NCBI GenBank assembly: GCA_046537845.1
Contig: JBKHKA010000006.1
Location: 1,486 to 65,485 of the forward strand
Direction of reading: 5' to 3'
DNA: 64,000 bases
DNA from: Candidatus Aenigmatarchaeota archaeon
Lineage (GTDB): Archaea > Thermoplasmatota > Thermoplasmata > Halarchaeoplasmatales > Halarchaeoplasmataceae
Shown one piece after another: positions 2,547 through 17,315 of the stretch. The notes beneath the pieces are model-generated. The model had not been told where the DNA came from and made no database searches. It saw only the letters and a list, made by a program, of their open reading frames with translations. Positions within the stretch are counted from its first letter, which is position 1, and each line of letters begins with the position of its first letter. A program made the translations under genes and the position numbers.

Positions 2547-4439
2547 ATGAAGATACTTCTGATACATTCGGATTATCTGAAATATCAGGTGAAAAAAGAG
2601 ACTCCCGTAGCTGAAGAGATCGAAGAAGAGATGAAAAAGGGAGAGATGAACGAATGTCTCTCAGTATTCACTGCGGTCGAAGAGAAGGACGAAGGGAAGG
2701 TAGAAAAAGTGGTAGAACAGGGAGTGAAAGAGATAAAAGACACCGCAGAAAAGCTCGACGTCTCAAAGATAATGATCTATCCCTACGCGCACTTGAGTCC
2801 AACTCTAGGAGATCCCGAGACCGCCGTGGAGGTGCTCAAAGGATTAGAGGAAGAACTGCATGAAGATGGCTATGAAGTACACAGGTCTCCTTTCGGCTGG
2901 TATAAAGCATTCCAGCTGAGCTGTAAGGGACATCCTCTCTCCGAACTCTCCAAAGAGATCGTCGTGGAAGAGGAAGAGAAGGAAGAAGTCGTTTCAAAGG
3001 CTCTCGAGGCAGAAGAGACCTTAGAATCGACATGGGGTGTCCTCGAGGAAGACGGAACCTTTCACGAGGTCGAAATCGATGGTAACGAGGTAAAAGGATA
3101 CGATTTCGAAGACAACCAAGATCTAGAAGACTTTTTCGTTTACGAAGCGGGAGAGAAAAAGAAGTCAGGTGAAAGATCACCGCATGTCGATCTGATGAGA
3201 AGACATGAATTAGTGGATTACGAACCCGGTTCAGATCCAGGAAATCTGAGGTACTACCCGAAGGGTAGGATGATGAAGGGGCTCCTTGAAGAATTCGTGA
3301 GCGAAAAGACCAGAGAATACGGTGCTATGGAGATCGAATCTCCCGTGATGTACGATCTTGACCATCCGACATTGAAAAAATATCTCGACCGCTTTCCGGA
3401 GAGACAGTATCAGATCGAGACTCCAGATAAGGATGTCTTTTTGCGATTCGCGGCTTGCTTCGGTCAATTTTTGATGGGTCACGACATGACCATCTCTTAT
3501 AGGCAATTACCTGTAAGACTTTACGAACTGACCAGATATTCCTTCCGTATGGAACAGAGGGGAGAGCTAACAGGATTGAGGAGGCTGAGAGCTTTCACCA
3601 TGCCCGACAGTCACGCCCTATGTGGGGACATCGAGCAGGCTCAGAAGGAGATGATAACCAGGATGGACCTGGCTATCAGAGTACTCAAAAATATCGGTAT
3701 AGATCTTCCTGAAACGCTGGAATTGGGTATCCGATGTACCGAGGACTTCTTTGAGGAAAATAAAGATCATCTGATCGAGATAGTAAAAAACTACGGGAAA
3801 CCCGCGCTGATAGAGATATGGGATGAACGTTTCTTTTACTATGTGATGAAATACGAGTTCAACTATATCGATAAGCTGGGCAGAGCGAGCGCGTTGGTGA
3901 CCGATCAGCTCGACGTGGAAAATGCTGAAAGATATGGGATAACATACGTAGATGAAGAGGGCGCAGAGAAAAATCCTTATCTCCTCCATCTCTCTCCAAG
4001 CGGTGCCATAGAGAGGGTGATCTTTACACTTCTAGAGTTGGCAGGAACACGGGAAGACGAAGGCGAAAAACCAGCGTTCCCCTACTGGTTAGCGCCGACA
4101 CAATTGAGGTTCGTTCCCATCTCGGACGATCAACTGGAGTATGTAAAAGAGTTGGAGAAGAGCTTCAAAGGGGTAAGAAGGGATATCGACGATACTGACA
4201 GGACCGTAGGGAAGAAGATCCGCCAGGCAGAGAAGGAGTGGATACCTTTCGTGGCGGTCATCGGCCCCAAGGAGGTCGAAAGTGGAAAACTCTCGGTCAG
4301 GATCAGAGGTGAAGAAAAAGAGAAAGAGATGGAGTTGGATGAATTGAAAAGATTGCTCGAAGAGAAGCAGGGTGACATGCCTTTCAGAGAGCTTCCACTG
4401 CCCACTTATCTCAGCAAAAGACCTTCCTTCGTAGGCTGA
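2547..4439 (+). CDS. thrS: threonyl-tRNA synthetase, archaeal type with N-terminal editing domain
   Basis: The 630-aa ORF has an archaeal ThrRS editing domain at the N-terminus (MKILLIHSDYLKY...), a class II core and an anticodon-binding C-terminus. AAGGTGAT lies upstream of the ATG. Confidence 0.95.
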   Translation: MKILLIHSDYLKYQVKKETPVAEEIEEEMKKGEMNECLSVFTAVEEKDEGKVEKVVEQGVKEIKDTAEKLDVSKIMIYPYAHLSPTLGDPETAVEVLKGLEEELHEDGYEVHRSPFGWYKAFQLSCKGHPLSELSKEIVVEEEEKEEVVSKALEAEETLESTWGVLEEDGTFHEVEIDGNEVKGYDFEDNQDLEDFFVYEAGEKKKSGERSPHVDLMRRHELVDYEPGSDPGNLRYYPKGRMMKGLLEEFVSEKTREYGAMEIESPVMYDLDHPTLKKYLDRFPERQYQIETPDKDVFLRFAACFGQFLMGHDMTISYRQLPVRLYELTRYSFRMEQRGELTGLRRLRAFTMPDSHALCGDIEQAQKEMITRMDLAIRVLKNIGIDLPETLELGIRCTEDFFEENKDHLIEIVKNYGKPALIEIWDERFFYYVMKYEFNYIDKLGRASALVTDQLDVENAERYGITYVDEEGAEKNPYLLHLSPSGAIERVIFTLLELAGTREDEGEKPAFPYWLAPTQLRFVPISDDQLEYVKELEKSFKGVRRDIDDTDRTVGKKIRQAEKEWIPFVAVIGPKEVESGKLSVRIRGEEKEKEMELDELKRLLEEKQGDMPFRELPLPTYLSKRPSFVG

Positions 4440-4449
4440 ACTCCAAACT

Positions 4450-5916
4450 TCAGGCTACCTGGTACAATCGAAGTTCATCTTTCATATCCTTTAATTCATT
4501 CTCTGAAAACGAGTTGGGATCGACATGCACCAAGAGCGTGAATTTTGGCTCTCTAGTGATCCCCCATACTTTTTTCAAGAACTCTAAAGTACTGTCGAAG
4601 CCGTTCTCAACCTTCATCCTTTCCAACTTATCTATGAATATGACCCCTTCCTCGTTCTCTTCTACAAAACTTTTGATCTGCGGTACGAGTTCGGCATGTA
4701 TCTCCGTAGGGCTCACCACCTGGAATACATCGGAATCTATGTTAGATAGCCAGATAAGATTTTCTCTTGACACCTCCACTCCGAACTCACCCGCTATCTT
4801 GTTGGGGGGTGTGGTAGTCACCACTAGAGCTCTTTTCTGCTTCGAGAAGTACTGGGCGAATATAGAATAAGAATGGTGTATCTCCTTGCCTTCCAAAAGG
4901 TAGTTAGAGCCTTTCCTGAGGAATTCCTCCTCATCTTTGACTTCTTCCTTCAGATCTTCCTCGGGTATCTCAGATTCCTCCTCTACCTGTTCCATCTCCT
5001 CCTCTTCCTTTTCTTCCTCTTTTTCTTCCTCTTCCTCCATCATCTCCCTTTCCATGGTCTTCGGATAGAGTTTGAAGGTGACTGAAGCCGTGGCAGAGGG
5101 TTCAAGCCACTCGACGACTTTCTTCCTCTCCCGTGAATCGAGAGATTCGGGGATAAAGGGTCTCAGAGTTATATTTTTCAGAGGCCTCTCACTGATGTTC
5201 TTTATGGATATCTTGTAGATAGGGTATTTATATGCACAGTCCAGGTTGGAGGTCAAGATTATCTTGTTGTTGAGGATGAGATCGGCCAACTTGTTCCGTT
5301 CTATCTTATTATCCGACTTCAATATCGCCTCAACGGACCGGCTCTCTTTTGGTCTTATGACGCCTAATTTTTTTTCCGGAAGATCTTTGAATCCCTGAGG
5401 GGTAGAGAGATTTATCAATATCTCCCCAAGGGGGGAATCCATCCTATTGATTATCTGGAAGGTGAAATTTATCCTGCCCACGTCGTTCCTTATGACCGTC
5501 CTGAGGCTGACATTTTTCTTCAAGAGAGGGAAAGGCAGGAATAGACTCCTCTCAAGGGCGGTCCAAGAGTCCTCCATGAGCTCAAAGGCACGGCCGAAGT
5601 CCATCTCCGCTAGCGCCTCTTTGGCTTCTTCTAGTATGGACCTAGCCTCCCCAACATCATAGCCCTGTTTCTCTTTCCTATCTATATTTTTTCTGAGTTT
5701 TCCAAACTCAGATAATGCTTTTTCCTGCTGCTTTTTGACCTGGTCTATCTCCTTTTCAAGTCTTTTAGTTTCCTTTTTAGATCCCTTATAATCCCCTGTC
5801 TTGAATAGTTCCTTAGAATTGTCTCTTAGCTCTTTCAATATCCTCTCGGAGCTGGCGGATGACGGGTCTTTCCGCTCTAACGGTTTTCCCTCATTCGGAG
5901 ACACTCTTTTCACCAT
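4450..5916 (-). CDS. cytoplasmic protein: helical hairpin, degenerate beta-sandwich modules, acidic linker and C-terminal DUF835-like domain
   Basis: The C-terminal ~140 aa (NYLLEG...LIWLSNIDSD...GVIFIDKLERM...LLVHVDP) align with the C-terminus of the IleRS-like protein at 43831..47805. They match my recollection of Pfam DUF835. The start overlaps the stop of the upstream giant gene by 26 nt. Confidence 0.7.
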   Translation of the reverse strand: MVKRVSPNEGKPLERKDPSSASSERILKELRDNSKELFKTGDYKGSKKETKRLEKEIDQVKKQQEKALSEFGKLRKNIDRKEKQGYDVGEARSILEEAKEALAEMDFGRAFELMEDSWTALERSLFLPFPLLKKNVSLRTVIRNDVGRINFTFQIINRMDSPLGEILINLSTPQGFKDLPEKKLGVIRPKESRSVEAILKSDNKIERNKLADLILNNKIILTSNLDCAYKYPIYKISIKNISERPLKNITLRPFIPESLDSRERKKVVEWLEPSATASVTFKLYPKTMEREMMEEEEEKEEEKEEEEMEQVEEESEIPEEDLKEEVKDEEEFLRKGSNYLLEGKEIHHSYSIFAQYFSKQKRALVVTTTPPNKIAGEFGVEVSRENLIWLSNIDSDVFQVVSPTEIHAELVPQIKSFVEENEEGVIFIDKLERMKVENGFDSTLEFLKKVWGITREPKFTLLVHVDPNSFSENELKDMKDELRLYQVA

Positions 5917-8900
5917 CCTTGGTAAATTGCTGAACTTTCACTCTCAAATCTTCGATGACCTTTTCATTTCCAGATATCCTCATCCATAGTTCTTCATGGA
6001 GCTTTGCGGTCCAGATCGCGATGACCAGGCCGATAAACACGTATACACCCACGAATATGAGGCTGGGTATATATACAAAATTGGAGATCTCGAAGAAACC
6101 AGTCGTCAGAGCACCAACGTAATCGCCCATGAAAATAAGATCCAGATTTGTCATCAATAGGAAAACAAGGTAGGTGATACCGCCTGTCAAAGATAGAGCT
6201 AGATGATAGTAATAGGGCGAGGGAGTTTCCTCTTTTTCAGGCTCTTTCTCTACTGACCTTTCTTCTGTTAACCAGCCTCCCTCTTCTCTTTCTCTCTTCT
6301 CCGATTCGTCCTTTTCCGCCCTCGGGTTGAGATCCTTCTCGGGCTTTGAAGACTTCTCCTTTATTATATGCCGGGTGACAGAGCTTAAGAGATCTTTGAT
6401 CTCGAACCGGATCATGTAAAGTAAAGCTGCGAAAGAGATCATCCCCAGGATGATTATCCCCATATTTATCCTGTTGATCAGTTCAGATGACCCGATGGTC
6501 CAATACCATGGGAACATCACCATTGAGGCGAACAGAACGCCCAAAGAGAGCCCCATGGATACACACAACCCGTTGTGCTCTCTCAGAGCTCTCCAAGAGA
6601 TGATGAAGGCCAAAAGACTGACAACGAAAAGGATCAGCGGAAGCCAGTAGGGTATGCCGTGATACCTCGAAATCATCATATCCCGGCTCATCTCGTTGTT
6701 ATTTTCAGCGTCACCAGCAGCATTTATCATGTAGATCTCATCGTCTGGATCGACTATGACTTCTACATCGTGCCGCCTGACCGTTTCCCCCCATTTCCAA
6801 TCGTCCGTCTTATGGACCAATTTGTATCTGAATACCTCTTCGCTGACGCCCGTTCCTTCTCTCCCCAAGAACTCTATCTCTTCTTCCGGTATGGTATGGT
6901 CGTCGATCACCAGCTCGAACGGTATGGCGGGTACGGGAGACTCCTCATCTGGCAGTAGGTCTTCGCTGCCGGAACGTTCTATAGAAAATGTGATCTCAAG
7001 CTCCCTCCCGTTCTTGCGCGGATCGATGGATATATCTACGGGTCTGATATCGAACCAGGACATCTTGGTTCGGGTCACGAGCACATTGGTCTCAGCGGGC
7101 AAGCTCTTACTCCTCGAGTTCGCAACTATTTCGAACTCCTGTACATCCTCGCGTTCGACCCGGGGAGCATCCATCTCTAATATCAGCTCTTCGCTCTCAT
7201 AGGCCTCTTCGAACTCCAAGGTATCTGAATTTACATCAAATTCTGAACCTCTATGCTGGAACGTTATTTCCCAGCCCTGGCTCTCGAGTCTTTCTACAGG
7301 TGCTGAAAGGTTCACGACATCAGGAAGGCTTTCTCCAGCGTTTTTGTCTTCTTCTTCCAGTGGCACGTTCATTATTGTGATGTCATATCCTGCGGTCTCG
7401 CCTATCTTTATGGTCTTTGAGGGTTCTTCAGCATCTATCATCACCACCCTGGTCGTGGTGGTGGTTTCCTCAGAAAAATCTTCATCCCCTACCGTCACTT
7501 CGATCTTTTCGCCCAAGCAGGGTTCCAAGCTCAGCGGCAGTTCGACGGTGAGATTCGTGACTGCTTTTTCTCCTATCCCCAACTCCAATACGTCCTCATC
7601 AAGATGAGCGTTCCCAAGATAGGCTTCGTCTTCCTCTGAGGTAAGATTCAGATCTACCTTATCTTCTGCGTTCCCCAGATTGAAGACCTCGATCTGGTGT
7701 TCCGCACTCTCCCCCGGTAATGCATTCTGAGCTTCAAAAGACGTGATCCGGTGCCTTTTGACCTTTTCAACGGTCAATTCTTCTTTTATGCTCTCATTCA
7801 CGCTCGAGTCAGTTCGAGATGTTGCGTTGATCATCACCTCGAACTGAGTTCCGCCCAAAATGTCCAACTCCTCCAAGCTTTCATAAGACGGAACGTCAGG
7901 GATCTCTGGAGCGGTCACGGTCACATTCCTTATTTCAGATGTTAAAGGTGCGAGCTCCACCAGTTCTTCCTGCACGTAGATGTTCCATGCGTCGTTTTCA
8001 GACCCTGCCTCAAGTTCAAAACTGTCGTTCGTGTTGCCGTTGTTATGTATCTTTATGCTCATGTTTGCGGTCTCACCCGGCCTTATCGAAAGCTCAGGAT
8101 CGACCGCTTCTATCTTCACATCCGGAACTTTCACCACTTCTGTTGTCGTATTGGCGGTATCGGTTTTACTCCTGTTCCCACTACTTCTCCCTATGACCGT
8201 AACGTTGAAAGGCTTCTCGTGTACAGCGTCTGATGAAGGAGTGACGTTGAGATGGGTCGTGGTGGTATTCCACCGGTCTATGGTGAGAGAAGCGTCCACC
8301 AACTCAGCATCCCACCTCTCGGTCTCTGAGTGTTCTAAAGAGAGGGTGATCGTATCTCTGACATTTCCCGCGTTCGTCACTTCTATCTGATAAGAGACCG
8401 TCTCTTCGGGATAAACTGTGGTTTTGTTCATATCCGGCTCTAGTATGACTGAATATCCTTCACCCACCTCGATGAAGGCACTACCCTGATCAGAGACGGT
8501 CTCGTCCCGCTGATTCCTCTCGAACAAAGAGGTAGCCGATAGGATGACCTCCTCGGTGTGGCCGAGTTCGACCTTCCTCGGGATCTTAACCTCGACTGTG
8601 ACATTGGCTTCCCTAGAGGGGTGAAGATTTTCTACCAAGCTTTTATTCTCTCCTTCGACTTTGACTATATCAGATTCCCAACCGTTCTGGGTCGATGAAT
8701 GGAGTTCATAGTGGTCGATGCCGTTACCGGTATTTTTGACGGTGAAATCCAAGCGGACCGTCTCCTCAGGTCGACCATCGACGTTCTCCTCCACCGGAGA
8801 AACTTCGACGCCGCCGCTCTGATTCACTACCACTTTGACCTCTCCCGTGCCGTTATGTATATACTGGTCGGAGACGTCTGAATGAGGGAATGGTCGAGCG

Positions 8901-10162
8901 ACGAATTCAGCTGTGAAAGTTCCGTTGAAGGGCTTACGGGGTGCGGTGACCCTGGTCCTTATCTCGTCCGTTTCACCACCAACCAAGGTCACGTTAGGGG
9001 CGCTGATAGAGGCAGCCCACCTTTCAGCCTCCCCTTCCTCATCTAGATCCACCCTCGTTTCAAAACTTTTATTTTTTTCCGATACAGATATGTCCATCTT
9101 GGAATCTTCTTCGTCCCTCACGTTACAGAGATTTCTCACTTCCAGATCGAAATCTATGTCAGTGGTGGTCTCAGCGTATTCGATAGTTTTGAACGGCTCT
9201 ATGGGCCTTAAAGTAGCCGAGTAGTACGGTCCGACAGTCACCGAGGGTGTCGGGGAAGTCGTGTTGATGATCCCGTTACCTGCCTGGGCGTTCAAAACTA
9301 TATTCTTCGTGGCTCCGCGGTAGATATCTTTCTCTTCAAGTTTGTATTCCATCCCCACTTCTGGCATTAGAACGTCCACGTCTACCGTGATAGCTTCTGA
9401 AGGTTCTAACAGTTCTGTCGTATCCTTCGAAGAGACTTCCCAATAAGGATTATCCACGTAGGGCATGAGCTCGTAGGAATCCATTATGTTACCCACGTTC
9501 TTAAGCTCATAAGTTATGGTGAACTCGGAGCCAGGAGTCCTTTCAATATTTTCTACCATGGGTTCTATCTTACAGCCGTATCGGGCATCGGTGTAAGTGT
9601 AGGTCACACCTGTATCCGTAACACTAGAATCAGTTCGAGATGTCACTTCCAAAATCAGCCTATCGGCAGTGTAAGGTTCTGCATCTTCAGGGATCTGGAT
9701 AGTCAATAATACCTCTGCTGTTCCGTTAGGGGAAAGATCAGTTATAGATCCTTCATCATCCGATATCAGCCATCCACGGCCAGATTCTGCTGTCCAATCG
9801 TAAGAGTCCATCTGAGTACCGTTGTTCAATATCTCGAAAGTGTATGTCAACGTCTCTCCATAATTTCCCTCCCGCTGAGAAGGCGCATCTACAACCACTT
9901 CGTACTCCGCATATTGGGATGAGCTGTTTTCAGAAGAATATCCTCCAAACCCCGACTGCGAAGAAAGTTCCGCCATAGAAGAGTTACCCTCGACTTCATA
10001 GACTGAAGTTATAAGGGGTAGAGTCATACTCACCAACAGGAGCATAGTGATGGACGAAACGATCAAGAGGGATGTAAATTTTGCATTCATCTGTTCAATC
10101 ATTATTTTGATCCATGTATTTAGGTATTTTTCAATTTTACTCTCGATCATATTTTTTTTCAT
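5891..10162 (-). CDS. giant surface protein: signal/anchor segment, at least 6 tandem CARDB/NEW3-like beta-sandwich modules, C-terminal 5-6 TM anchor
   Basis: The signature [FIV]x[VIL]xNxGNxxDx[FY] recurs (EILNNGTQMDSY, ELKNVGNIMDSY, VKNTGNGIDHY, VTNAGNVRDT, IHNNGNTNDSF, VFNLGNAEDK). There is an N-terminal hydrophobic segment (FTSLLIVSSITMLLLVSMTL) and several C-terminal TM helices. I chose the start at 10162 because its ATG overlaps the flaJ TGA (ATGA). The in-frame ATGs at 10150, 10102 and 10090 are alternatives. The track start at 10279 lies inside flaJ. Confidence 0.8.
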   Translation of the reverse strand: MKKNMIESKIEKYLNTWIKIMIEQMNAKFTSLLIVSSITMLLLVSMTLPLITSVYEVEGNSSMAELSSQSGFGGYSSENSSSQYAEYEVVVDAPSQREGNYGETLTYTFEILNNGTQMDSYDWTAESGRGWLISDDEGSITDLSPNGTAEVLLTIQIPEDAEPYTADRLILEVTSRTDSSVTDTGVTYTYTDARYGCKIEPMVENIERTPGSEFTITYELKNVGNIMDSYELMPYVDNPYWEVSSKDTTELLEPSEAITVDVDVLMPEVGMEYKLEEKDIYRGATKNIVLNAQAGNGIINTTSPTPSVTVGPYYSATLRPIEPFKTIEYAETTTDIDFDLEVRNLCNVRDEEDSKMDISVSEKNKSFETRVDLDEEGEAERWAASISAPNVTLVGGETDEIRTRVTAPRKPFNGTFTAEFVARPFPHSDVSDQYIHNGTGEVKVVVNQSGGVEVSPVEENVDGRPEETVRLDFTVKNTGNGIDHYELHSSTQNGWESDIVKVEGENKSLVENLHPSREANVTVEVKIPRKVELGHTEEVILSATSLFERNQRDETVSDQGSAFIEVGEGYSVILEPDMNKTTVYPEETVSYQIEVTNAGNVRDTITLSLEHSETERWDAELVDASLTIDRWNTTTTHLNVTPSSDAVHEKPFNVTVIGRSSGNRSKTDTANTTTEVVKVPDVKIEAVDPELSIRPGETANMSIKIHNNGNTNDSFELEAGSENDAWNIYVQEELVELAPLTSEIRNVTVTAPEIPDVPSYESLEELDILGGTQFEVMINATSRTDSSVNESIKEELTVEKVKRHRITSFEAQNALPGESAEHQIEVFNLGNAEDKVDLNLTSEEDEAYLGNAHLDEDVLELGIGEKAVTNLTVELPLSLEPCLGEKIEVTVGDEDFSEETTTTTRVVMIDAEEPSKTIKIGETAGYDITIMNVPLEEEDKNAGESLPDVVNLSAPVERLESQGWEITFQHRGSEFDVNSDTLEFEEAYESEELILEMDAPRVEREDVQEFEIVANSRSKSLPAETNVLVTRTKMSWFDIRPVDISIDPRKNGRELEITFSIERSGSEDLLPDEESPVPAIPFELVIDDHTIPEEEIEFLGREGTGVSEEVFRYKLVHKTDDWKWGETVRRHDVEVIVDPDDEIYMINAAGDAENNNEMSRDMMISRYHGIPYWLPLILFVVSLLAFIISWRALREHNGLCVSMGLSLGVLFASMVMFPWYWTIGSSELINRINMGIIILGMISFAALLYMIRFEIKDLLSSVTRHIIKEKSSKPEKDLNPRAEKDESEKREREEGGWLTEERSVEKEPEKEETPSPYYYHLALSLTGGITYLVFLLMTNLDLIFMGDYVGALTTGFFEISNFVYIPSLIFVGVYVFIGLVIAIWTAKLHEELWMRISGNEKVIEDLRVKVQQFTKDGEKSVSE

Positions 10163-11823
10163 CCGAATATTATCGAAACCCCCAATCGAGCGATATAATA
10201 TGCTACCGCGGCCATCCATATCATAACTGCGAATTTTGCCATGGATATGTACTTGTGCTCTCCTTTGATGTGCCAGCAAACCACGGTGCCGGTCAAGGCT
10301 TGTGTGAGTATCATCACCAGGATGAGCTCATGATAAGCGGCGAGGTCAATCGGAGCGGTGCTAATGAATCCAAAATCTCCGAACATACCTTCCATCCCTC
10401 CCGGCATCTCTACTTCGGCTATTATATCATTTATCTCGTCCACGATCATGAATATGGAGACCATGGTCAAAGTGATCACTACCATCACACCGTAAAATAC
10501 ACTCTGCAGAGATTTTGCTCTCAATATCTTCTTCTTCCTCAAACCGGTCACTTCGATGAAATTTTCGCTGATTATCGGGCTCGTTTCTTCAGGGTGGGCT
10601 CCGTGCTGAGATGCGGTCAAAAATATGTTGCTGAATTCGTTTATCAAAAAGCTCCCTGTTTCAGAGCCGAAATAGCGCCAAGAAGATTCAGATTCTATGT
10701 TCATCTTCAATCGCCGATAGAGCGATCGTATGTTTTCGGTCAGCTTTCCAAGATCATGATAGCGGAGTTTTCCTACACTTTCCGTGTGATCAGCGGTCTG
10801 TGCTGGAGTGTTACCTGCTAGAGAACGTATGAAGGAAGGAAAATTCGAATCGCGTCGGAGCACCCTGTTTTCTTCTATACCCGCTGCGATACCCGGTATT
10901 ATCAAAGGGCTAAATATGATCGCGAGCTTCAAGAGCGAAGAGATATCGACAAATAATACCAGCGTCACGGCAAGTATCGCCGAGGATATCAAACTACCGA
11001 TGAAAAGTTTATCTAATTTATCGTCGACTTCGGTCCTGAGATCCCCGTCATACCATATCCTGGTCCTGGGGATCACCTTCAAGAATACCCAACCTGAAAC
11101 GAAAGATACTATCACGAAGAGGAAGAAGACCAGCGTGATCAACACCCGACTGTTGACATCTATAAGAAGAGGAGTTATGACGGCCAAAACCATCCCGAAA
11201 AGGGAGATCGTGATCCCAGCTATATATAGCTCGCCGATGATGTCCAGCCGGAACAGCATGTTCTCAAATTTGTTAGAATAATCATCCATAACGGTCTCCT
11301 GTTCATCCTGGAAAAATTCTTTAGGACTAGTCTGGGTCTCCAAAGCGTAAGCGAGCCTTTCCAAAAAATCGGAAAGCATCTCGCTGGGCGTGTTTTTAGA
11401 TATCGTCCGTGCGGCTTCAGGTAAGGACATGTTCCATTTGGTGGCCAACCGCTCCAGCCTTCTGATCTCCTTTCCCAATTCCCCATACATCTCCATCTCG
11501 GAAAAGATCTCTTGGAATCCTTTGTCCGATATCTCCGAAGCCGAAAGGGCTCCCAATCTAGTTATGAAAAGATGCATATCCCTATCTATCTTTATACTCT
11601 TTATCTCCTCTTTGATGACTGGATAGAATATAGCTACGGCGGTGGTAAAAACGGGCAATACGTAAAGAGTGATGACGAAATAAGAGTCGAGGAATACCAA
11701 AGGGAACGTCAATCCCAGTAGGAGAGAGAGCAAGATACCCAAAAAAGTGGTCGGTAGGATCACCCTGAATACGTAGTTTGGTATAGATATATCAAGGTTC
11801 TGATAGGAATTCACAACCTTCAC
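10159..11823 (-). CDS. flaJ: archaellum polytopic membrane protein FlaJ/ArlJ
   Basis: This 554-aa polytopic membrane protein lies directly downstream of flaI with a 4-nt overlap. It has the TadC/FlaJ-like layout with cytoplasmic domains between TM blocks. Confidence 0.9.
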   Translation of the reverse strand: MKVVNSYQNLDISIPNYVFRVILPTTFLGILLSLLLGLTFPLVFLDSYFVITLYVLPVFTTAVAIFYPVIKEEIKSIKIDRDMHLFITRLGALSASEISDKGFQEIFSEMEMYGELGKEIRRLERLATKWNMSLPEAARTISKNTPSEMLSDFLERLAYALETQTSPKEFFQDEQETVMDDYSNKFENMLFRLDIIGELYIAGITISLFGMVLAVITPLLIDVNSRVLITLVFFLFVIVSFVSGWVFLKVIPRTRIWYDGDLRTEVDDKLDKLFIGSLISSAILAVTLVLFVDISSLLKLAIIFSPLIIPGIAAGIEENRVLRRDSNFPSFIRSLAGNTPAQTADHTESVGKLRYHDLGKLTENIRSLYRRLKMNIESESSWRYFGSETGSFLINEFSNIFLTASQHGAHPEETSPIISENFIEVTGLRKKKILRAKSLQSVFYGVMVVITLTMVSIFMIVDEINDIIAEVEMPGGMEGMFGDFGFISTAPIDLAAYHELILVMILTQALTGTVVCWHIKGEHKYISMAKFAVMIWMAAVAYYIARLGVSIIFG

Positions 11824-13472
11824 TCTTCGTCCCTCCTTTTCTCTCTTATGTCCGCGAGCTTCCTTCTCATGTTCTCCATCCCTCCGTAGCTGTAACTCTT
11901 GAATATCTCGGCGACTTTTTCGTGTTTGGTGATCCCGGCCTCGACTATCTCACTCAATATCTCCGTCCTCTTCTCCAGCTCATCGTAGATCTTCTTCCTG
12001 TCATCGAATCGAAGTTTCGGGGCTACCAGATTTTCAAGAACATAGCTGTTGTTCATCCCGATGAAGTTATGCTGGTCCTTCACTGGGTCCCAAGTAAAGA
12101 TCCTACGGGTCTGTACGCCTTCCCTTTCCCGAGAATATCCCAATATCTCCACAACTGAACTGCATCTTCTCAATATCTGACCCTCGTGATAGATGATCTG
12201 CTGGAAAAGGCAGACGTTCAGGTTGTCCATGAACCTTATAGGAACGTTTATGGGATCACCTGTAAAACGCTGGATGAGCTTATCTATGGAGGACGCATGG
12301 AAGGTTGATATGACCGGATGTCCCGTCTGTATGGCCTGAAAAGCTGCCGAACCTTCTCTTCCCCTGACCTCCCCGATCACTATATAGTCAGGTCTAGAAC
12401 GCAGCGCCGTCTTCACCAGGTCGAAGAGTTCCACATGCGAATCTTCAGGTCCAGTTTCTCGCGTCACCAATCTCTGCCACGTCGGTTGGGGGACGTTCAC
12501 TTCAGGGGTGTCTTCCGCACTGTATATCTTCTGGTCGTAGCCGATGAAAGGCAGTAGGGCGTTCATGGTGGTGGTCTTTCCTGATGCCGTTACCCCCGAA
12601 ACTATTATGCTCATATCGAACTCCAAACACAGCCAGAGGTAAGCCGCCATCTTTGGAGAAAGTGTGTTCCAAGCGACTATCTGAGGTATGGTTATGGGTT
12701 CAGCACTGAAATTTCTGATCGTGAAGCTCGGACCTTCTTTGCTGACATCCTTGCTGTAGATTATATTGACCCTCGAGCCCATAGGGAGAGCACCGTCAGT
12801 GATAGGGTTGCTCTCAGTCACGTTCTTCCCCATCCTATTGCTCATACTCCTGACATATTTTTCCAATTCTTCTTTACTTTCAAAAGAGAGGTTCGTTTCT
12901 AAGAGTCCGAATACCTCGTGCAAGACCGACAGATTGTTGAGAGCAACACCGTGGATATCTTCCACGTAGGGATCGTACAGCGTAGATTCTAAAATACCAT
13001 AACCCATTATCCTCTTTTTGAGGTGATAGCGGACGGTATCCATATCTTCTGGACCCACTCTCACTTTTCCCTCCCCAAAAGAGATCATGCTTGATATGCC
13101 AGATCTGCTTGCCGTAACGTTATCTATGAGTTCGTCGAGCTTCTTTTCAAATTCTTGGCCGTCATCCGGTGTGGGTGTCCGCGATGCTTTGTGAAGTATC
13201 TTCTTCCTTATATCCTCTACTTTCTGCTTGAGTTCCTCGTCGAGAGGAGGTTCGATCACGAGATAGCGGCCTTTTTCTTCCCTAGGTATGTCGAGATGGA
13301 TAAAGATGGGGTCTTGCACCGGATAGACTATATTCACTTCGTCCATAGAGGCCATCTCACGGCTGAGACTTTCTCTAAACTCTGGTCGGACCCCTCTTTC
13401 TTCCTCCAGATCATCCAGATAATCCCTGAGATGAGGGTTATTATCCAAAGCCTCTCCGAATTTTGACGGCAT
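11820..13472 (-). CDS. flaI: archaellum assembly/motor ATPase FlaI/ArlI
   Basis: It is a type II/IV secretion-family ATPase with Walker A GVTASGKTTTMNAL and the motifs RPDYIVIGEVRG and GHPVISTFHA. The ATG at 13472 is preferred. A GTG at 13481 is also possible. Confidence 0.95.
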   Translation of the reverse strand: MPSKFGEALDNNPHLRDYLDDLEEERGVRPEFRESLSREMASMDEVNIVYPVQDPIFIHLDIPREEKGRYLVIEPPLDEELKQKVEDIRKKILHKASRTPTPDDGQEFEKKLDELIDNVTASRSGISSMISFGEGKVRVGPEDMDTVRYHLKKRIMGYGILESTLYDPYVEDIHGVALNNLSVLHEVFGLLETNLSFESKEELEKYVRSMSNRMGKNVTESNPITDGALPMGSRVNIIYSKDVSKEGPSFTIRNFSAEPITIPQIVAWNTLSPKMAAYLWLCLEFDMSIIVSGVTASGKTTTMNALLPFIGYDQKIYSAEDTPEVNVPQPTWQRLVTRETGPEDSHVELFDLVKTALRSRPDYIVIGEVRGREGSAAFQAIQTGHPVISTFHASSIDKLIQRFTGDPINVPIRFMDNLNVCLFQQIIYHEGQILRRCSSVVEILGYSREREGVQTRRIFTWDPVKDQHNFIGMNNSYVLENLVAPKLRFDDRKKIYDELEKRTEILSEIVEAGITKHEKVAEIFKSYSYGGMENMRRKLADIREKRRDEE

Positions 13473-13520
13473 GATTATCACTCTTTTAATATCTTCATCT
13501 TATTTCGGCTGTAGGCAGGG

Positions 13521-14231
13521 TCAGGTCACCTGCGTTATATCTACAACAAATCCAGCATTAGGTTCTATCCTGAACTTTATCACGTCCTGCATCCGGCCTT
13601 TTGCAGAGGTGAACCTTCTCACGTGTATCATCCTTTCTGTTTCTCCCCCGATGGTTTTCCTATCTAGTTGAAGATAGATATCAGCTGCTGACTTGTAAGG
13701 CGTCATTATGTCTTCATCTACTTCGTCCGGATCTAACGTTAAAAATAGGGTCTTACCCTTGCTGCAGATCTTTTTGAAAAAAGAGAGAGCTTCTAAAGAA
13801 AGATTTTCCTTTCTGCAATCTTCGATCAAAGACGAAAGGGTGTCGACGATGGTGATATTTCTCCCGTACAACCCATCACCTTCTATAAGTCGGGGAAGCG
13901 CCTCTTCTCTCGCACATGACTCACCCACTAGAGGATTAACTGGAACGAATTTGAGCTGTTGGTTATATATCTCTCCCTTTATCGGATAATCCAATGAATT
14001 CATCTGATTTATGAAGGGTTTCGTGTTAGTCTCGGACGAGACATAAGTGGCGGTGTAACCGTTTTTGACGAAGCCATAAGTGAATCTCTGGCATATCACG
14101 CTCTTGCCGCTGCCGAATTTTCCGGTTATCAATACCATAGATCCTTTAGGTATACCTCCTCCCAGAGCGGTAGCTAAGGTGTCTTTGTCAAGATCAAATT
14201 GGTAATAGGTCAGGTCGGTCTCTTGAGCCAT
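13521..14231 (-). CDS. flaH: archaellum KaiC/RecA-like protein FlaH/ArlH
   Basis: GGGIPKGSMVLITGKFGSGKSV (Walker A) in a KaiC-like single domain, positioned between flaG and flaI. The ATG at 14231 is preceded by GAGGTGA. A GTG at 14240 is an alternative. Confidence 0.9.
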   Translation of the reverse strand: MAQETDLTYYQFDLDKDTLATALGGGIPKGSMVLITGKFGSGKSVICQRFTYGFVKNGYTATYVSSETNTKPFINQMNSLDYPIKGEIYNQQLKFVPVNPLVGESCAREEALPRLIEGDGLYGRNITIVDTLSSLIEDCRKENLSLEALSFFKKICSKGKTLFLTLDPDEVDEDIMTPYKSAADIYLQLDRKTIGGETERMIHVRRFTSAKGRMQDVIKFRIEPNAGFVVDITQVT

Positions 14232-14241
14232 CTCTTTCACC

Positions 14242-14724
14242 TCAGATCAGATGAAATTTTAGGGAATCGCTGTCTCTTCCCCTCTTTTCTCCCTGAAATA
14301 TCCCCTGCACTTCTATCCTGACTGAATGATCCTCTCCCGTTTCTAGGTTCGGTACGGAAACGTTTATCTTCGCTACGCTGCCCTGCGTCCAATCGGTGTC
14401 GTTCCCCATCACGGTAACATCCGTTTCGTTCACGGAATGCATCACTCCATCCACATTGATCAGGGTCTGAGATATATCCAATTCGTACATCCCTACATTT
14501 TTTGCATATATGGTAAGATTTCCCGTATCATTATCGTAAGGCACCTGTACTGGATCATTTATTATCTCAACACCGACGTAATAATCGGCAGCTTCCCCCT
14601 TGGCGCTCTGCTGTATACTGTCGGAGTAGCGGTAGGCGATACCGACAATAGCTCCGACTATGGATATAGCGACGATAACCGATACTGCAAACCATATCAT
14701 CTCCGTGGCGCTCCTTCCCGCCAT
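14242..14724 (-). CDS. flaG: archaellum protein FlaG/ArlG-like
   Basis: The 160-aa ORF has an N-terminal TM (EMIWFAVSVIVAISIVGAIVGI) and a beta-rich soluble domain. Its operon position after flaF fits. The FlaF versus FlaG assignment rests on the N-terminal motif and on gene order only. Confidence 0.7.
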   Translation of the reverse strand: MAGRSATEMIWFAVSVIVAISIVGAIVGIAYRYSDSIQQSAKGEAADYYVGVEIINDPVQVPYDNDTGNLTIYAKNVGMYELDISQTLINVDGVMHSVNETDVTVMGNDTDWTQGSVAKINVSVPNLETGEDHSVRIEVQGIFQGEKRGRDSDSLKFHLI

Positions 14725-14726
14725 CC

Positions 14727-15176
14727 TTATCCCGCTCCCTCGACATGATAAGTTCCGGAGCCGAACTCGCTAACCACCAGCACCCGGTTCGTCTCTTCCT
14801 CCACGTCTTCTAAACTCAGGACGAGTTTTTGACCCGGATTCCACAGGTCCGTGTTTTCGATCTGATCATCTATAATTTTGCTGGTGACCTTATCGGTGCA
14901 GTAAACACCGTCCAGCAGTACCTCCAATTCGTTTATATCTAAAACAGTGTCCCCAGTATTGTTCAGACTTATGTTCAAGATGTTCTCTGCCCCCAGGTAA
15001 TTCACATCACTTATCGTCATCTCGGCCCGTTGTTTTTGATCCTTCCATTCTAGCCAATCGTTCCTCGCCTCTTCCTCTATCTCCTGTGCTCTTTCTATCG
15101 CGGGGTATAATGTGCCAAAGATCAACACCACGCCGACCAAGACGATGGCGGCGGAGGCTGAAACACTCAACCCCAT
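14727..15176 (-). CDS. flaF: archaellum protein FlaF/ArlF-like
   Basis: The 149-aa ORF starts MGLSVSASAAIVLVGVVLIFGTLY, a FlaF-like N-terminus. There is a strong GAGGTGATGAG upstream of the ATG. Confidence 0.7.
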   Translation of the reverse strand: MGLSVSASAAIVLVGVVLIFGTLYPAIERAQEIEEEARNDWLEWKDQKQRAEMTISDVNYLGAENILNISLNNTGDTVLDINELEVLLDGVYCTDKVTSKIIDDQIENTDLWNPGQKLVLSLEDVEEETNRVLVVSEFGSGTYHVEGAG

Positions 15177-15178
15177 CT

Positions 15179-16396
15179 CTACTCATCACCTCTTTTATCT
15201 TTTTGACCGTTCTTTATGGCTTTGATATATCGAAGGGATTCTTTGTGATCCTCAGGAGATAATCTCCAGTCCCCTTCTTTCTTTTCCACTCTGCCGTCTT
15301 CACCGATTATCCGGTCCTCATCGCTTTCACCAGAGATATCCAGCTTCATACCTTCCATGTAGGTCTGTATGTTCTTCTTCAGATCATCTTCGATCCAACC
15401 CAGCTCTTGATAATAATCCAGAGCACCTAGGATGTTACCGCTAGTCTTTGTGTAAAGAAAATCTATCCAATCGATCATCGCCTCCATATCGTAACGCTCG
15501 TTGATATCTGAAGGAGTTGTTGTCTCTCTTTTCACATCCTCATCGAAAGGTTCACTGTGATCTCCATGATTAAAATGGTTCAGATTGTTCATCGTGCCAT
15601 GATTACCAACGCCTTTTTTATCTGAGTCTTTACTAAGGTCTCCTAATTCTATGAAAGGACTCACATCTGATGATAGAAGGTCATAGAGTGCTGAAAGTTC
15701 TTTCAGTTTTTCCTCTACTTTCTCATAATTCACTTTGCGCCTCTCCAGTCTATCCATACGTGATATCACCAACGAGATCTCTTCCTCTATATCATTCATC
15801 TCTTCAGAAAATCCATCGACTTTATCGGATAGATCGGCGACTTTCTCTTTCAGATCTTTAACCAATTCAGAATCTGGCGGGGCTTCGGGTTCGAAGCCTT
15901 TTTCTAAAAGCTTTTCTTCCAACCTGGCCAATTCTTCCCTAAAGTCTCCACTGTATGATCTTTCAGCTGGTTCACCGTCGACCTCTGGCATACCATGCCT
16001 TATCTCAAATTTTTCTATCTCCGATGGGGGTTCTTCTGCTCTTTCTTCCATAATCCCCTCTTGCTTTTCTTCTGCTTCTGGAGGGGCTGGAGATGATTTC
16101 ACCCTTTCGGTTTCCTCTTCCCAGCTTTCGTCAGTTGTTTCTCCTGCTATCTCAGCGGCTATATCTTCTTTTCTCTCGGAGGTTATCTCCTCTACACTTT
16201 CCTTCTTCCGTTTACTCCTGAGATCTGCCCCCGTACCTGATGGCTTCTCGTATCCTTTTTTACCATCGAAAGTCCAATCCTCTTTTCCAACGGACCCTAT
16301 GTTTTCTTCTTCCTTTTCAGAACCCGCTTGAGACCCTTTTGCTTTCAATTTAGGTTTGTTACGTTTGTCCTTCTCTTCACTTCTTTCTTCAGTCAT
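15179..16396 (-). CDS. archaellum accessory protein with FlaC-like coiled coil and C-terminal FlaD/E domain
   Basis: The C-terminus (MIDWIDFLYTKTSGNILGALDYYQELGWIEDDLKKNI) is the FlaD/E signature. The central coiled coil ends in YDLLSSDVSPFIE, which is FlaC/D-like. The N-terminal acidic extension is unusual. I chose the start at ATG 16396. The track start at 16489 is a TTG inside the archaellin gene. Confidence 0.75.
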   Translation of the reverse strand: MTEERSEEKDKRNKPKLKAKGSQAGSEKEEENIGSVGKEDWTFDGKKGYEKPSGTGADLRSKRKKESVEEITSERKEDIAAEIAGETTDESWEEETERVKSSPAPPEAEEKQEGIMEERAEEPPSEIEKFEIRHGMPEVDGEPAERSYSGDFREELARLEEKLLEKGFEPEAPPDSELVKDLKEKVADLSDKVDGFSEEMNDIEEEISLVISRMDRLERRKVNYEKVEEKLKELSALYDLLSSDVSPFIELGDLSKDSDKKGVGNHGTMNNLNHFNHGDHSEPFDEDVKRETTTPSDINERYDMEAMIDWIDFLYTKTSGNILGALDYYQELGWIEDDLKKNIQTYMEGMKLDISGESDEDRIIGEDGRVEKKEGDWRLSPEDHKESLRYIKAIKNGQKDKRGDE

Positions 16397-16467
16397 CCTT
16401 GTTGACTCCTTCAACAATCCAAAAGAAATAGAAAGGGGATGTAAGTTCCCCTGAATATCTTCTCGAC

Positions 16468-17097
16468 TCAGTAGGTCAGATCGAACCAACCCTGGTCGGG
16501 ATAGCTCGTGGGAGTTACGGTCTCCAATATCTCTGAGGTAGCCCCTTCAGCGGATAAGAATCTGAAGGTCACATCGCTATCAGCGCCCGCTGGATAGAGG
16601 TCCTCGCTGATACGAAGGCCCACCATCTCATCGGTATAAAGGTAGCTTGGATTTTCAGGATCTTCATTACTATATCTCAGTATCTCAAAGGTGCCGTTGA
16701 TATCGTCGAGTTGCGTCGAATCGTGGTCCTCGTGGACGAACCTCTGATTGAAACCGTCGCCTGTAACACCGTCTTCACCGATTATGTGGATCACCAAGTT
16801 GTTCAGATCGTATCCTCGGGTCCCTTCGTAGGCTGTGACGCTGATCTTCAACTCGTCCATCGTATCTCCATCTGATGTATGACCTTCCGCCTCGCTGACT
16901 TTTACTGGAGGATGTATATTTTCCTGCGTCTCTCGACCAGTCTTTTTAGCTTTTTCCTGCAGATCGCCCATGACCCCAACGATCACGGCAGAAGCGATAG
17001 CCGCAACCAGGATGAGGCCGATGAAGACGATAAGCGTGCCTATACCTATAGCACCGCTGTCTTCTTCAGGGAGCCTATTTATCCTTTTCACATTCAT
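16468..17097 (-). CDS. flaB: archaellin (FlaB/ArlB) with class III signal peptide
   Basis: MNVKRINRLPEEDSG/AIGIGTLIVFIGLILVAAIASAVIVG is the canonical archaellin N-terminus. The ATG at 17097 is preceded by GGAGGAAAAAAAAG. The track start at 17157 adds an implausible extension. Confidence 0.9.
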   Translation of the reverse strand: MNVKRINRLPEEDSGAIGIGTLIVFIGLILVAAIASAVIVGVMGDLQEKAKKTGRETQENIHPPVKVSEAEGHTSDGDTMDELKISVTAYEGTRGYDLNNLVIHIIGEDGVTGDGFNQRFVHEDHDSTQLDDINGTFEILRYSNEDPENPSYLYTDEMVGLRISEDLYPAGADSDVTFRFLSAEGATSEILETVTPTSYPDQGWFDLTY

Positions 17098-17315
17098 CTT
17101 TTTTTTCCTCCATTTTACAATATATTCATTACTTTGCTGTTTTGATGAGGTTCTCAAGGTAAATAAAATTTGTCATCTAGTACTTACCGTTTGCTGTATA
17201 TTACATCGTTTTCCCTCTTGATGATGATCCCTCGCCACATATAACTGCTATATATTTTATCAGCACGACAAAACATAAATACACTTAAATTCAATTAGGA
17301 TTTAGGCGGGAAATC

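Follow-up and report, generated by a model that had tools for sequence, protein, structure and literature searches.

Proteins resembling those of the surface layer (S-layer) and ATPases of the KaiC family have been linked to archaeal type IV pilus and archaellum (arl) loci by Makarova et al. 2016 (PMC4858521), and S-layer-like proteins with multiple immunoglobulin (Ig) domains (arCOG05057) occur in the arl loci of Methanococcales and Thermococcales, where a local modification of the S-layer has been suggested (2026 preprint, bioRxiv 10.64898/2026.04.22.720090). The proteins ArlF and ArlG are thought to hold the archaellum motor by binding to the S-layer (Banerjee 2015; Tsai 2019; Umrekar 2021, as cited in PMC12448462). 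Sulfolobus cells without an S-layer assemble archaella but cannot swim, and PMC12448462 explicitly names the anchoring of the stator in S-layer-less Thermoplasmatales as an open question. The composition of the euryarchaeal polar cap and of the structures around the motors is largely unknown (PMC10117864), and the one Thermoplasmatales species that was examined showed no polar cap (PMC12448462). Here we describe a two-gene cassette that adjoins an archaellum operon on a 64,000-nucleotide (nt) stretch of the metagenomic contig JBKHKA010000006.1 (assembly GCA_046537845.1), the whole of which is hereafter called the window. The cassette encodes a giant Ig-repeat surface protein, referred to as the giant, and a protein with a DUF835 domain, referred to as the partner.

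The minus strand of positions 4450-17097 of the window holds nine consecutive open reading frames (ORFs), seven of which were identified by Pfam as arl genes. All components of a euryarchaeal-type arl/fla operon are present and in order (arlB-arlCDE-arlF-arlG-arlH-arlI-arlJ), followed by the giant gene and then the DUF835 gene, and the arl order is kept in 11 related loci. The region is best explained as the euryarchaeal-type archaellum operon of a haloalkaliphilic Thermoplasmata archaeon (Candidatus Natronoplasma); an identical DUF835 protein in NCBI carries the name Candidatus Natronoplasma sp. (Thermoplasmata, Candidatus Halarchaeoplasmatales). An earlier reading of the window, made from the letters alone and here called the sequence-only reading, had proposed that the two genes beyond arlJ (flaJ) are extra archaellum-associated components, translationally coupled to the motor genes. 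The association with arl genes proved to be real and conserved, whereas coupling to arlJ was not the conserved feature. We consider it fairly probable that the two genes form an archaellum-associated cassette with semi-independent expression. The accompanying statement that canonical operons end at flaJ is roughly right, with exceptions in Pyrococcus furiosus (PMC10665913) and in the Ig proteins of Thermococcales and Methanococcales (bioRxiv 10.64898/2026.04.22.720090). Additional genes in arl loci thus have precedents. The searchable literature contained no description of a pair with a giant protein on a multi-pass anchor and an overlapping adaptor gene, of its distribution in halophilic Thermoplasmata, or of a pseudo-KaiC fusion.

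Evidence for an association comes from related loci. The giant protein, the DUF835 protein and ArlJ were used as search queries, followed by context look-ups, which gave 10 further distinct loci, for a set of 11 distinct cassette loci (the window, L003, L004, L006, L007, L012, L014, L015, L016, L018 and L023). The giant and partner genes adjoin arl genes in 11 out of 11, over a range of ArlJ identities from 100% down to 32%, and the linkage in relatives that the sequence-only reading had asked about was thus found in every locus carrying the pair. The giants are full-length orthologues with 64% to 25% identity over about 1,260-1,450 residues by BLAST. Three gene orders were observed: the cassette follows arlJ in nine loci, lies divergently upstream of arlB in L016, and lies co-directionally upstream of arlB in L023. 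L003, L004, L006, L007 and L012 (ArlJ 72-80% identical) retain the gene order arlJ, giant, DUF835 protein, and in L007 the flanks differ on both sides, with histidine kinases instead of thrS and rlmE. In L014 and L015 (ArlJ 63-64%) the flanks are POR and glycosyltransferases, and arlJ is followed by a giant of 1,427 or 1,429 amino acids (aa) and a partner of 337-351 aa. The cassette of L018 (ArlJ 44%) consists of a 1,373-aa giant and a 274-aa partner directly after arlJ, with TFIIB upstream of the cluster and ribonucleotide reductase downstream. In L016 (ArlJ 49%) a 1,455-aa giant and its partner are found upstream of arlB on the opposite strand, and in L023 (ArlJ 32%) a 1,652-aa giant, a 477-aa partner and then arlB through arlJ are on one strand. 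Two further scans added little: a contig scan with the ArlJ alignment recovered five loci, all from the same clade, its patterns being too specific, and a metagenome scan with a six-sequence giant alignment recovered one locus, a duplicate of L012.

Synteny inherited by chance among close relatives, with no functional meaning, would account for part of this pattern, as the window, L003, L004, L006 and L012 also have their wider surroundings (thrS, rlmE, ribosomal genes) in common. It would not account for L007, L014, L015, L016, L018 and L023, which keep the cassette beside arl genes despite other flanks or gene orders, and we hold this explanation to be very improbable. The flanks among the cassette loci are unrelated to one another (thrS/rlmE, histidine kinase, POR/glycosyltransferases, ribonucleotide reductase/TFIIB). 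That the cassette has stayed with arl genes despite at least two rearrangements and several replacements of its flanks argues for a functional association rather than inherited synteny. We take the linkage to be a signature of such an association, limited to part of the Thermoplasmata.

Other features of these loci were recorded alongside. Large proteins directly flank arlJ in L016 (11686-14115, minus strand), L020 (12230-21689, minus), L021 (11646-21656, minus) and L023 (18789-21434, plus); they are mostly unannotated or have Ig, PKD, FG-GAP, CARDB or TPR matches. Their genes converge with arlJ in the first three of these loci, whereas that of L023 is co-directional. A locus from another assembly, L017 (3699-6840), has the same ArlJ protein as L016, a shorter arlI (487 aa) and ABC-transporter genes, not arlH, preceding arlI; it could be a truncated cluster or an assembly chimera. 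In L018, the most divergent locus with the cassette directly after arlJ, a TFIIB homologue (3732-4736, plus strand) is encoded immediately upstream of arlB, which agrees with the link between TFIIB and type IV pilus loci that Makarova et al. pointed out (PMC4858521).

Within the cassette, the two genes overlap. The giant stop codon (5891-5893) lies inside the DUF835 ORF, and the overlap amounts to 26 nt with ATG 5916, as the sequence-only reading had put it, or to 14 nt with GTG 5904, as in L003 and L004. The GTG is the likelier partner start because an SD-like (Shine-Dalgarno-like) GGTGA is found 5 nt upstream and the resulting product fits the aligned (M/V)SP N-termini of the orthologues. 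The giant and partner genes overlap in 10 out of 10 related loci by 4-38 nt (4, 8, 8, 8, 11, 14, 14, 29 and 38), with the SD-like GGTGA and the partner start within the conserved last codons of the giant (GEKSVS followed by the stop). An overlap in every locus marks the pair as a tight two-gene cassette, and the partner is probably translationally coupled to the giant. The stop/start overlap is thus conserved at the giant/partner junction; at the arlJ/giant junction it is found in four of the eight comparable loci.

The giant gene (5891-10090, minus strand) encodes 1,399 aa from the conserved start ATG 10090, with in-frame alternative starts at 10102, 10150 and 10162. The product begins with a signal-like hydrophobic segment (aa 9-27) and has Pfam matches to Ig_VWA7, NEW3, FixG_C and CARDB. 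It scored 142.6 bits against the NCBIfam model for choice-of-anchor T (NF041740; cutoff 70) in four stretches; this model spans the repeated ectodomain modules only, so that the membrane anchor and other parts of the 1,399-aa protein fall outside it. A literature search on "choice-of-anchor" found no paper on the T family. The window giant has 26 N-glycosylation sequons and five NxGN motifs, and its orthologues have 12-37 sequons each, exactly five NxGN motifs, an acidic composition and about 1,100 residues of beta-sandwich repeats after a single N-terminal hydrophobic signal-like segment. No twin-arginine motif was present in any orthologue N-terminus, and a Tat signal peptide was rejected on that basis. 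A search of PDB sequences with the giant profile gave nothing below E 0.026. The hydropathy of all nine orthologues places a C-terminal multi-pass membrane anchor at about aa 1146-1359 (6014-6655), with four to five predicted transmembrane (TM) helices and a charged cytoplasmic loop; three to five hydrophobic helices were detected per orthologue, five in most, and the charged loop between them varies in length. An AlphaFold2 model of the C-terminal region fits this topology at low confidence (pLDDT, the predicted local distance difference test, 53.6). The anchor is followed by a conserved, predicted cytoplasmic C-terminal helix with the consensus LWxRIxxNEKxIxxL...GEKSVS (5894-6013), in which alignment columns L1431, W1432, R1434, I1435, E1439, I1442 and L1445 are invariant and whose last codons carry the partner SD and start. 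The sequence-only reading had described a repeat-rich, membrane-anchored surface protein, and the Ig-family matches, the signal segment and the C-terminal TM helices all bear that out.

With its signal-like N-terminus, its CARDB, NEW3 and Ig_VWA7 matches and its position beside arl genes, the giant has the features of the multi-Ig proteins of arl loci. Compared by description, it and the arCOG05057 proteins are alike in being large and secreted, in containing several Ig-like folds, in being encoded in or beside the arl cluster, and in their proposed action on the envelope where the filament or stator passes. The giant differs in its occurrence in halophilic Thermoplasmata, its C-terminal 4-5-helix anchor, its conserved cytoplasmic tail and its obligatory overlapping adaptor gene. 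A second explanation would make the giant an adhesin or a surface protein of general function, with a cytoplasmic partner of its own, serving in the amorphous exterior protein layer of Thermoplasmata or in attachment, and merely co-regulated or co-inherited with motility genes without a physical role at the motor. A multi-pass anchor and an obligatory cytoplasmic adaptor would be unusual for a bulk envelope protein, although the generic Ig-repeat ectodomain with its many sequons and the promoter-like element described below would suit one. Unrelated large surface proteins (PKD, FG-GAP, CARDB) are likewise encoded next to the arl loci of outgroups, and Makarova et al. left several S-layer arCOGs out of their type IV pilus sets as likely bystanders (PMC4858521). 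Against this, the adjacency to arl genes has outlasted the rearrangements and flank changes noted above, one such gene was seen per locus, and the family is very rare and stands beside arl genes wherever its context could be read. On balance we regard a general surface protein as doubtful.

The partner gene (4450-5916, minus strand) encodes 488 aa, and its product matches PF05763 (DUF835) at residues 349-481 with 74.9 bits against a cutoff of 33.1 (above the gathering score; E 7e-21, 128 of 136 model positions). The predicted secondary structure consists of a four-helix N-terminal domain (aa 22-125), a beta-sandwich (aa 136-285), a poly-Glu helix and an alpha/beta DUF835 domain. The helical domain and the beta-sandwich form a conserved N-module (5047-5916), homologous to the partners of L014, L015, L018 and L023; a poly-Glu linker (about 4912-5046) separates it from the C-terminal DUF835 domain (4474-4872). 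Residues 23-285, approximately, are common to these four partners, which are 274-477 aa long (BLAST E 1e-26 to 1e-76). When 1.84 billion representative proteins were scanned by HMMER for the N-module, only 49 matched, about 30 of them full-length family members of 265-568 aa. Among the 27 family members scanned for domains, DUF835 was found in one (the Natronoplasma representative) and a zinc ribbon in another, and the others had no known domain; the sole named member outside the Natronoplasma cluster comes from a Thermoplasmata metagenome-assembled genome (MAG). Profile searches against PDB sequences matched the second sandwich to the C-terminal domain of a GH20 enzyme (E 4e-5), a generic beta-sandwich match, and otherwise gave coiled-coil noise only. 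By these comparisons the conserved entity is the giant together with the partner N-module, and DUF835 appears as a clade-specific C-terminal addition. The description of the partner as a cytoplasmic DUF835-like protein therefore stood in so far as the domain is real and the partners have no TM segments; the name was slightly off, since the N-module of about 285 aa is the conserved part and DUF835 the lineage-specific one.

DUF835 has been classed as an inactivated KaiC-like (iKaiC) domain that serves as an output domain of archaeal response regulators (PMC5847659); the one paper mentioning it in the searchable literature is on two-component systems. In line with that class, the partner sequence contains no Walker A motif ([AG]xxxxGK[ST]) and so does not have the intact Walker A and B motifs of the active KaiC-family ATPases tied to archaellum and type IV pilus loci (arCOG01171 and others), whereas ArlH of the same operon keeps its Walker A. 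An AlphaFold2 model of the partner (pLDDT 56.8) is too uncertain for a firm fold assignment. Among the top Foldseek matches of this low-confidence model were FlaH of Sulfolobus acidocaldarius (4yds, E 2e-3), PH0250, KaiC and Rad51, all with E of at least 2e-3, and an hhalign comparison of the DUF835 protein with the ArlH profile was not significant (E 0.083), with only the Walker-B region aligned. Elsewhere in the window (43831-47805, plus strand) DUF835 is found at the C-terminus (aa 1186-1317, E 2.8e-34) of a 1,324-aa IleRS-like synthetase (tRNA-synt_1, Anticodon_1, DUF5915), an unusual fusion that also carries a helix-hairpin-helix at aa 1049-1098. This fusion marks DUF835 as a promiscuous module in the lineage. 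L004 encodes a 727-aa protein with UPF0547 and DUF835.

A domain of this kind raises the prospect that the pair is a transmembrane signalling or regulatory device, in which the ectodomain would sense surface contact or the state of the envelope and the adaptor, through its pseudo-KaiC DUF835 or zinc-ribbon C-terminus, would modulate ArlH/ArlI or arl expression, by analogy with CirA, a KaiC-like regulator of archaeal motility (PMC10983859). Like the motor component ArlH and CirA, the partner DUF835 belongs to a KaiC-related class, is encoded in an arl-linked gene and has weak structural matches to FlaH and KaiC. It differs from both in that, being without Walker A, it is not an ATPase, and in that it is an add-on in one sub-clade whose domain is also found on unrelated proteins of the same genome. 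The variable C-termini of the partners (DUF835, zinc ribbon or none), the use of DUF835 as a response-regulator output (PMC5847659), the ties of KaiC-like proteins to archaellum loci and motility control (PMC4858521, PMC10983859) and the fold matches would all suit such a device; the conserved partner core, by contrast, has no recognisable signalling domain, most of the family is without DUF835, and the fold and profile evidence is not significant. We judge a signalling role improbable. In being soluble, cytoplasmic and encoded with motor genes, the partner is also comparable to ArlX, ArlCDE and polar cap scaffolds and could itself be a scaffold, although it has no sequence similarity to ArlX or ArlCDE and the operon already encodes ArlCDE.

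How the cassette is expressed turns on the junction between arlJ and the giant gene. As the sequence-only reading had noted, the arlJ TGA (10159-10161) shares bases with an in-frame ATG (10160-10162) of the giant gene; the resulting ATGA derives from a GGA Gly codon followed by TGA. Starts and spacers were compared in eight loci (the window, L003, L004, L006, L007, L012, L014 and L015) by orthologue alignment and upstream translation. The conserved giant start corresponds to window position 10090 in 8/8, being ATG in seven and TTG in L015, and this falls in the range 10090-10150 whose use as a downstream start the sequence-only reading had named as speaking against coupling. A start that overlaps the arlJ stop was found in 4/8 (ATGA in the window and L003, TTGA in L012, TGATG in L004). 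No ATG, GTG or TTG lies upstream of the conserved start in L006, and L007, L014 and L015 have no start at the arlJ stop, only an ATG 4-5 codons upstream of the conserved start. No SD was found at a useful distance from ATG 10162.

The spacer contains a BRE/TATA-like element (B recognition element and TATA box), TTGAAAAATACCTAAATAC (10116-10134, minus strand), a candidate internal promoter of the giant/partner cassette. The motif, TTGAAAAANNCCTAAATA or, in pattern form, TTGAAAAA-NN-CCTAAATA(C), is found in 8/8 comparable loci and ends exactly 25 nt before the conserved giant start in each. The composite pattern occurs once per locus, at this junction only. Between the arlJ stop and the motif, the length varies by 9-18 nt among the loci and the sequence is unconserved, whereas the motif is conserved equally at the three codon positions and also in loci where it is untranslatable. 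It has the features of an archaeal promoter pattern, with a purine-rich BRE and an A/T-rich box about 23-27 nt upstream, and is conserved. In archaea the centre of the TATA box lies about 26-27 nt ahead of the point where transcription starts, a spacing that would put this point 3-4 nt before ATG 10090 and give a leaderless or nearly leaderless mRNA. TATA-like boxes also precede the ATGs of other window genes by 21-33 nt; that of rlmE, 29 nt from its ATG, is an identical CCTAAATAC. The L016 giant orthologue is preceded by GAAAAAATATATAT. Because the L016 cassette is divergent upstream of arlB, the giant there must have its own promoter. The element is likely to be an internal promoter of the cassette. 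No oligo-T run or terminator was found after arlJ, so read-through from the arl promoter is also expected. On the internal TATA elements and terminators that the sequence-only reading had suggested looking for, the outcome is therefore divided: a conserved BRE/TATA-like element lies 25 nt before 10090, and nothing resembling a terminator follows arlJ.

Two features of the spacer count against a promoter. First, in 8/8 loci the giant lies in the -1 frame with respect to arlJ, a frame that remains open past the arlJ stop, with spacers from arlJ stop to giant start of 68, 68, 68, 53, 50, 59, 53 and 53 nt, all 2 modulo 3; the chance of this for three independent indels is about 0.04. Second, the motif is directly succeeded by an SD-like G-rich element, after which, in 6/8 loci, there is an ATG 4-5 codons ahead of the conserved start. 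The open frame and congruent spacers would fit a strict extension of the operon, in which the giant is translated only by termination-reinitiation at the ATGA, the nine genes form one coupled unit and the spacer motif codes for an N-terminal extension. This explanation also draws on the overlapping starts of the window, L003, L012 and L004, on the continuity of the transcript expected in the absence of a terminator, and on the gene caller, which picked the arlJ-overlapping start for the window and L004. The case against it draws on L006, L007, L014 and L015, where no start is available at the arlJ stop, on the equal conservation of the motif at all codon positions and where it is untranslatable, on the unconserved residues upstream of the motif, on the missing SD for 10162, and on L016 and L023, where the cassette is not downstream of arlJ at all. 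We consider strict extension unlikely. Coupling of the giant gene to arlJ, as the sequence-only reading had it, is probably not the rule, and the ATGA of the window is probably incidental.

A programmed -1 frameshift from arlJ into the giant gene and a structured RNA in the spacer were also considered and set aside. No X_XXY_YYZ heptamer was present, and synonymous codon exchanges within arlJ (GTT/GTC/GTA) give different residues in the -1 frame (F/L/I), which argues against a dual-coding constraint. The spacer has no stable RNA fold (z = -0.37) and no match to a known RNA family in Rfam. The P. furiosus arl cluster offers a comparison for expression: a hypothetical gene follows arlJ there (Nather-Schindler 2014, as cited in PMC10665913), and poly-T attenuation inside the operon, just after arlB, has been shown experimentally, with no internal 5' ends detected (PMC10665913). 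The window is alike in having genes beyond arlJ and a terminator-like element directly after the major archaellin gene (16452-16434), and differs in the promoter-like element before its cassette.

Taken together, these observations suggest a lineage-specific two-gene cassette that travels with the arl cluster and whose expression in the window would combine read-through from arlJ with transcription from its own BRE/TATA-like promoter in the 68-nt spacer. The latter would give a leaderless or nearly leaderless mRNA translated from ATG 10090, and the ATGA would serve at most as an auxiliary initiation or restart site. The giant would be exported by a Sec-type signal and display about 1,100 aa of a probably N-glycosylated, extracellular array of CARDB/NEW3-type beta-sandwiches on a 4-5-helix anchor with a cytoplasmic tail helix. 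The partner would act in the cytoplasm as a soluble adaptor that combines a helical domain with a beta-sandwich and, in Natronoplasma, with an additional inactivated KaiC/ArlH-like DUF835. The two may bind each other through the cytoplasmic loop or tail of the giant and the helical domain of the partner. The likeliest role of the pair would be that of an archaellum-linked trans-envelope scaffold: the ectodomain would provide a fixed envelope structure in the pseudo-periplasm at or around the motor, and the giant tail and the adaptor would link that structure to the cytoplasmic periphery of the motor. One option is that the ectodomain anchors the ArlF/ArlG stator, in a phylum whose studied members are without a crystalline S-layer. 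The resemblance to the ArlF/ArlG-S-layer system lies in the fixing of a motor to a static envelope element, and the beta-sandwich ectodomain is the kind of partner that ArlF binds in Sulfolobus. The window differs in that its ArlF and ArlG are ordinary and the giant is membrane-anchored and not part of a lattice.

A more specific version of the scaffold can be put forward, which we rate as speculative and not likely to be right. In it the pair would be a dedicated stator mount of Thermoplasmata without a crystalline S-layer. An Ig collar would be gripped by ArlF/ArlG, the anchor and tail would pass the fixation on to the adaptor, and in Natronoplasma the pseudo-ATPase domain would dock on the ArlH/ArlI ring.

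Several points weigh against the archaellum-linked scaffold. The functional claims are drawn from gene neighbourhood and architecture, and all carriers are uncultured MAGs. L020 and L021, with ArlJ 31-34% identical, have no cassette beside arlJ and carry unrelated convergent surface-protein genes there, so not all related arl loci have the cassette. Genes for large surface proteins often occur close to arl and pilus loci, where a part of them may be bystanders. Both structure models are of low confidence (pLDDT 57 and 54), and the hhalign comparison of DUF835 with ArlH was, as noted above, not significant. The occurrence of DUF835 on the IleRS-like synthetase argues against an archaellum-specific role of that domain.

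The remaining genes of the operon, all on the minus strand, are the arl genes themselves. The archaellin gene arlB (16468-17097; PF01917, E 2.3e-19) starts at ATG 17097 with an SD GGAGG upstream, and its orthologues in related loci are 32-78% identical. It is followed by the arlC/D/E fusion arlCDE (15179-16396; PF04659, E 3.5e-15, and PF05377), whose ATG 16396 agrees with orthologue starts; by arlF (14727-15176), assigned by position and orthologues with a weak PF01917 match; and by arlG (14242-14724; PF01917, E 8.4e-12). The gene arlH (13521-14240; PF06745, E 2.5e-17) encodes a KaiC-like ATP-binding protein with conserved Walker A residues G40, G43, G45, K46 and S47, arlI (11820-13481; PF00437, T2SSE, E 2.8e-31) encodes the ATPase, and arlJ (10159-11823; PF00482, T2SSF, and orthologues) encodes the platform protein. 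The gene packing described by the sequence-only reading agrees with these coordinates: gaps of 2 nt between arlCDE and arlF and 2 nt between arlF and arlG, 1 nt between arlG and arlH with GTG 14240 (10 nt with ATG 14231), 39 nt between arlH and arlI with GTG 13481 (48 nt with ATG 13472), and a 4-nt GTGA overlap of arlI and arlJ. The 71-nt gap between arlB and arlCDE was absent from its list.

This gap contains, directly 3' of the archaellin stop, a hairpin AGGGGAACTTACATCCCCT and then a T-run TTCTATTTCTTTT (16434-16452, minus strand), a candidate intra-operon attenuator or terminator. T-rich tracts 3' of arlB recur in most related loci. The promoter and terminator scan was of the bacterial type and uninformative for an archaeon except for this hairpin and T-run. 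A candidate arlB promoter, the conserved 17-mer GACAAATTTTATTTACC (17160-17176, minus), is found about 60-75 nt upstream of the arlB ATG; it is identical in the window, L003, L012 and L004, with a similar copy in L007. Together with a strong SD, GGAGGAAAAAAAAG (17098-17112, minus), ahead of the ATG, this spacing makes the arlB mRNA appear leadered, unlike the leaderless-type spacing of many other window genes. Divergently upstream lies a gene (17316-18776, plus strand) for a 486-aa protein with domain matches to an SMC-like coiled coil and a C-terminal helix-hairpin-helix. It is found upstream of arlB in the window, L003, L004, L007 and L012, even where other flanks differ, and was not found in L014-L018 or L023. 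The L003 orthologue has a faint bactofilin match. This coiled-coil protein may be a further lineage-specific associate of the arl locus. Outside the arl region, two small plus-strand ORFs upstream of thrS (1995-2336, 113 aa, Prok-RING_2 by a Pfam match in L001; and 2287-2535, 82 aa) are conserved in L004 and L006.

A consequence for the wider family of archaellum genes is that neighbourhood surveys centred on arCOGs of cultured species have missed lineage-specific archaellum accessories. A practical limit is that all carriers of the pair are uncultured halophiles. The giant and its partner are concrete candidate proteins for the question of how the stator is anchored in archaea without an S-layer, and together they are a good candidate for the missing envelope anchor of the archaellum motor. 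If the pair does act as a stator mount, this would explain how an archaellum generates torque in a cell that has no S-layer.

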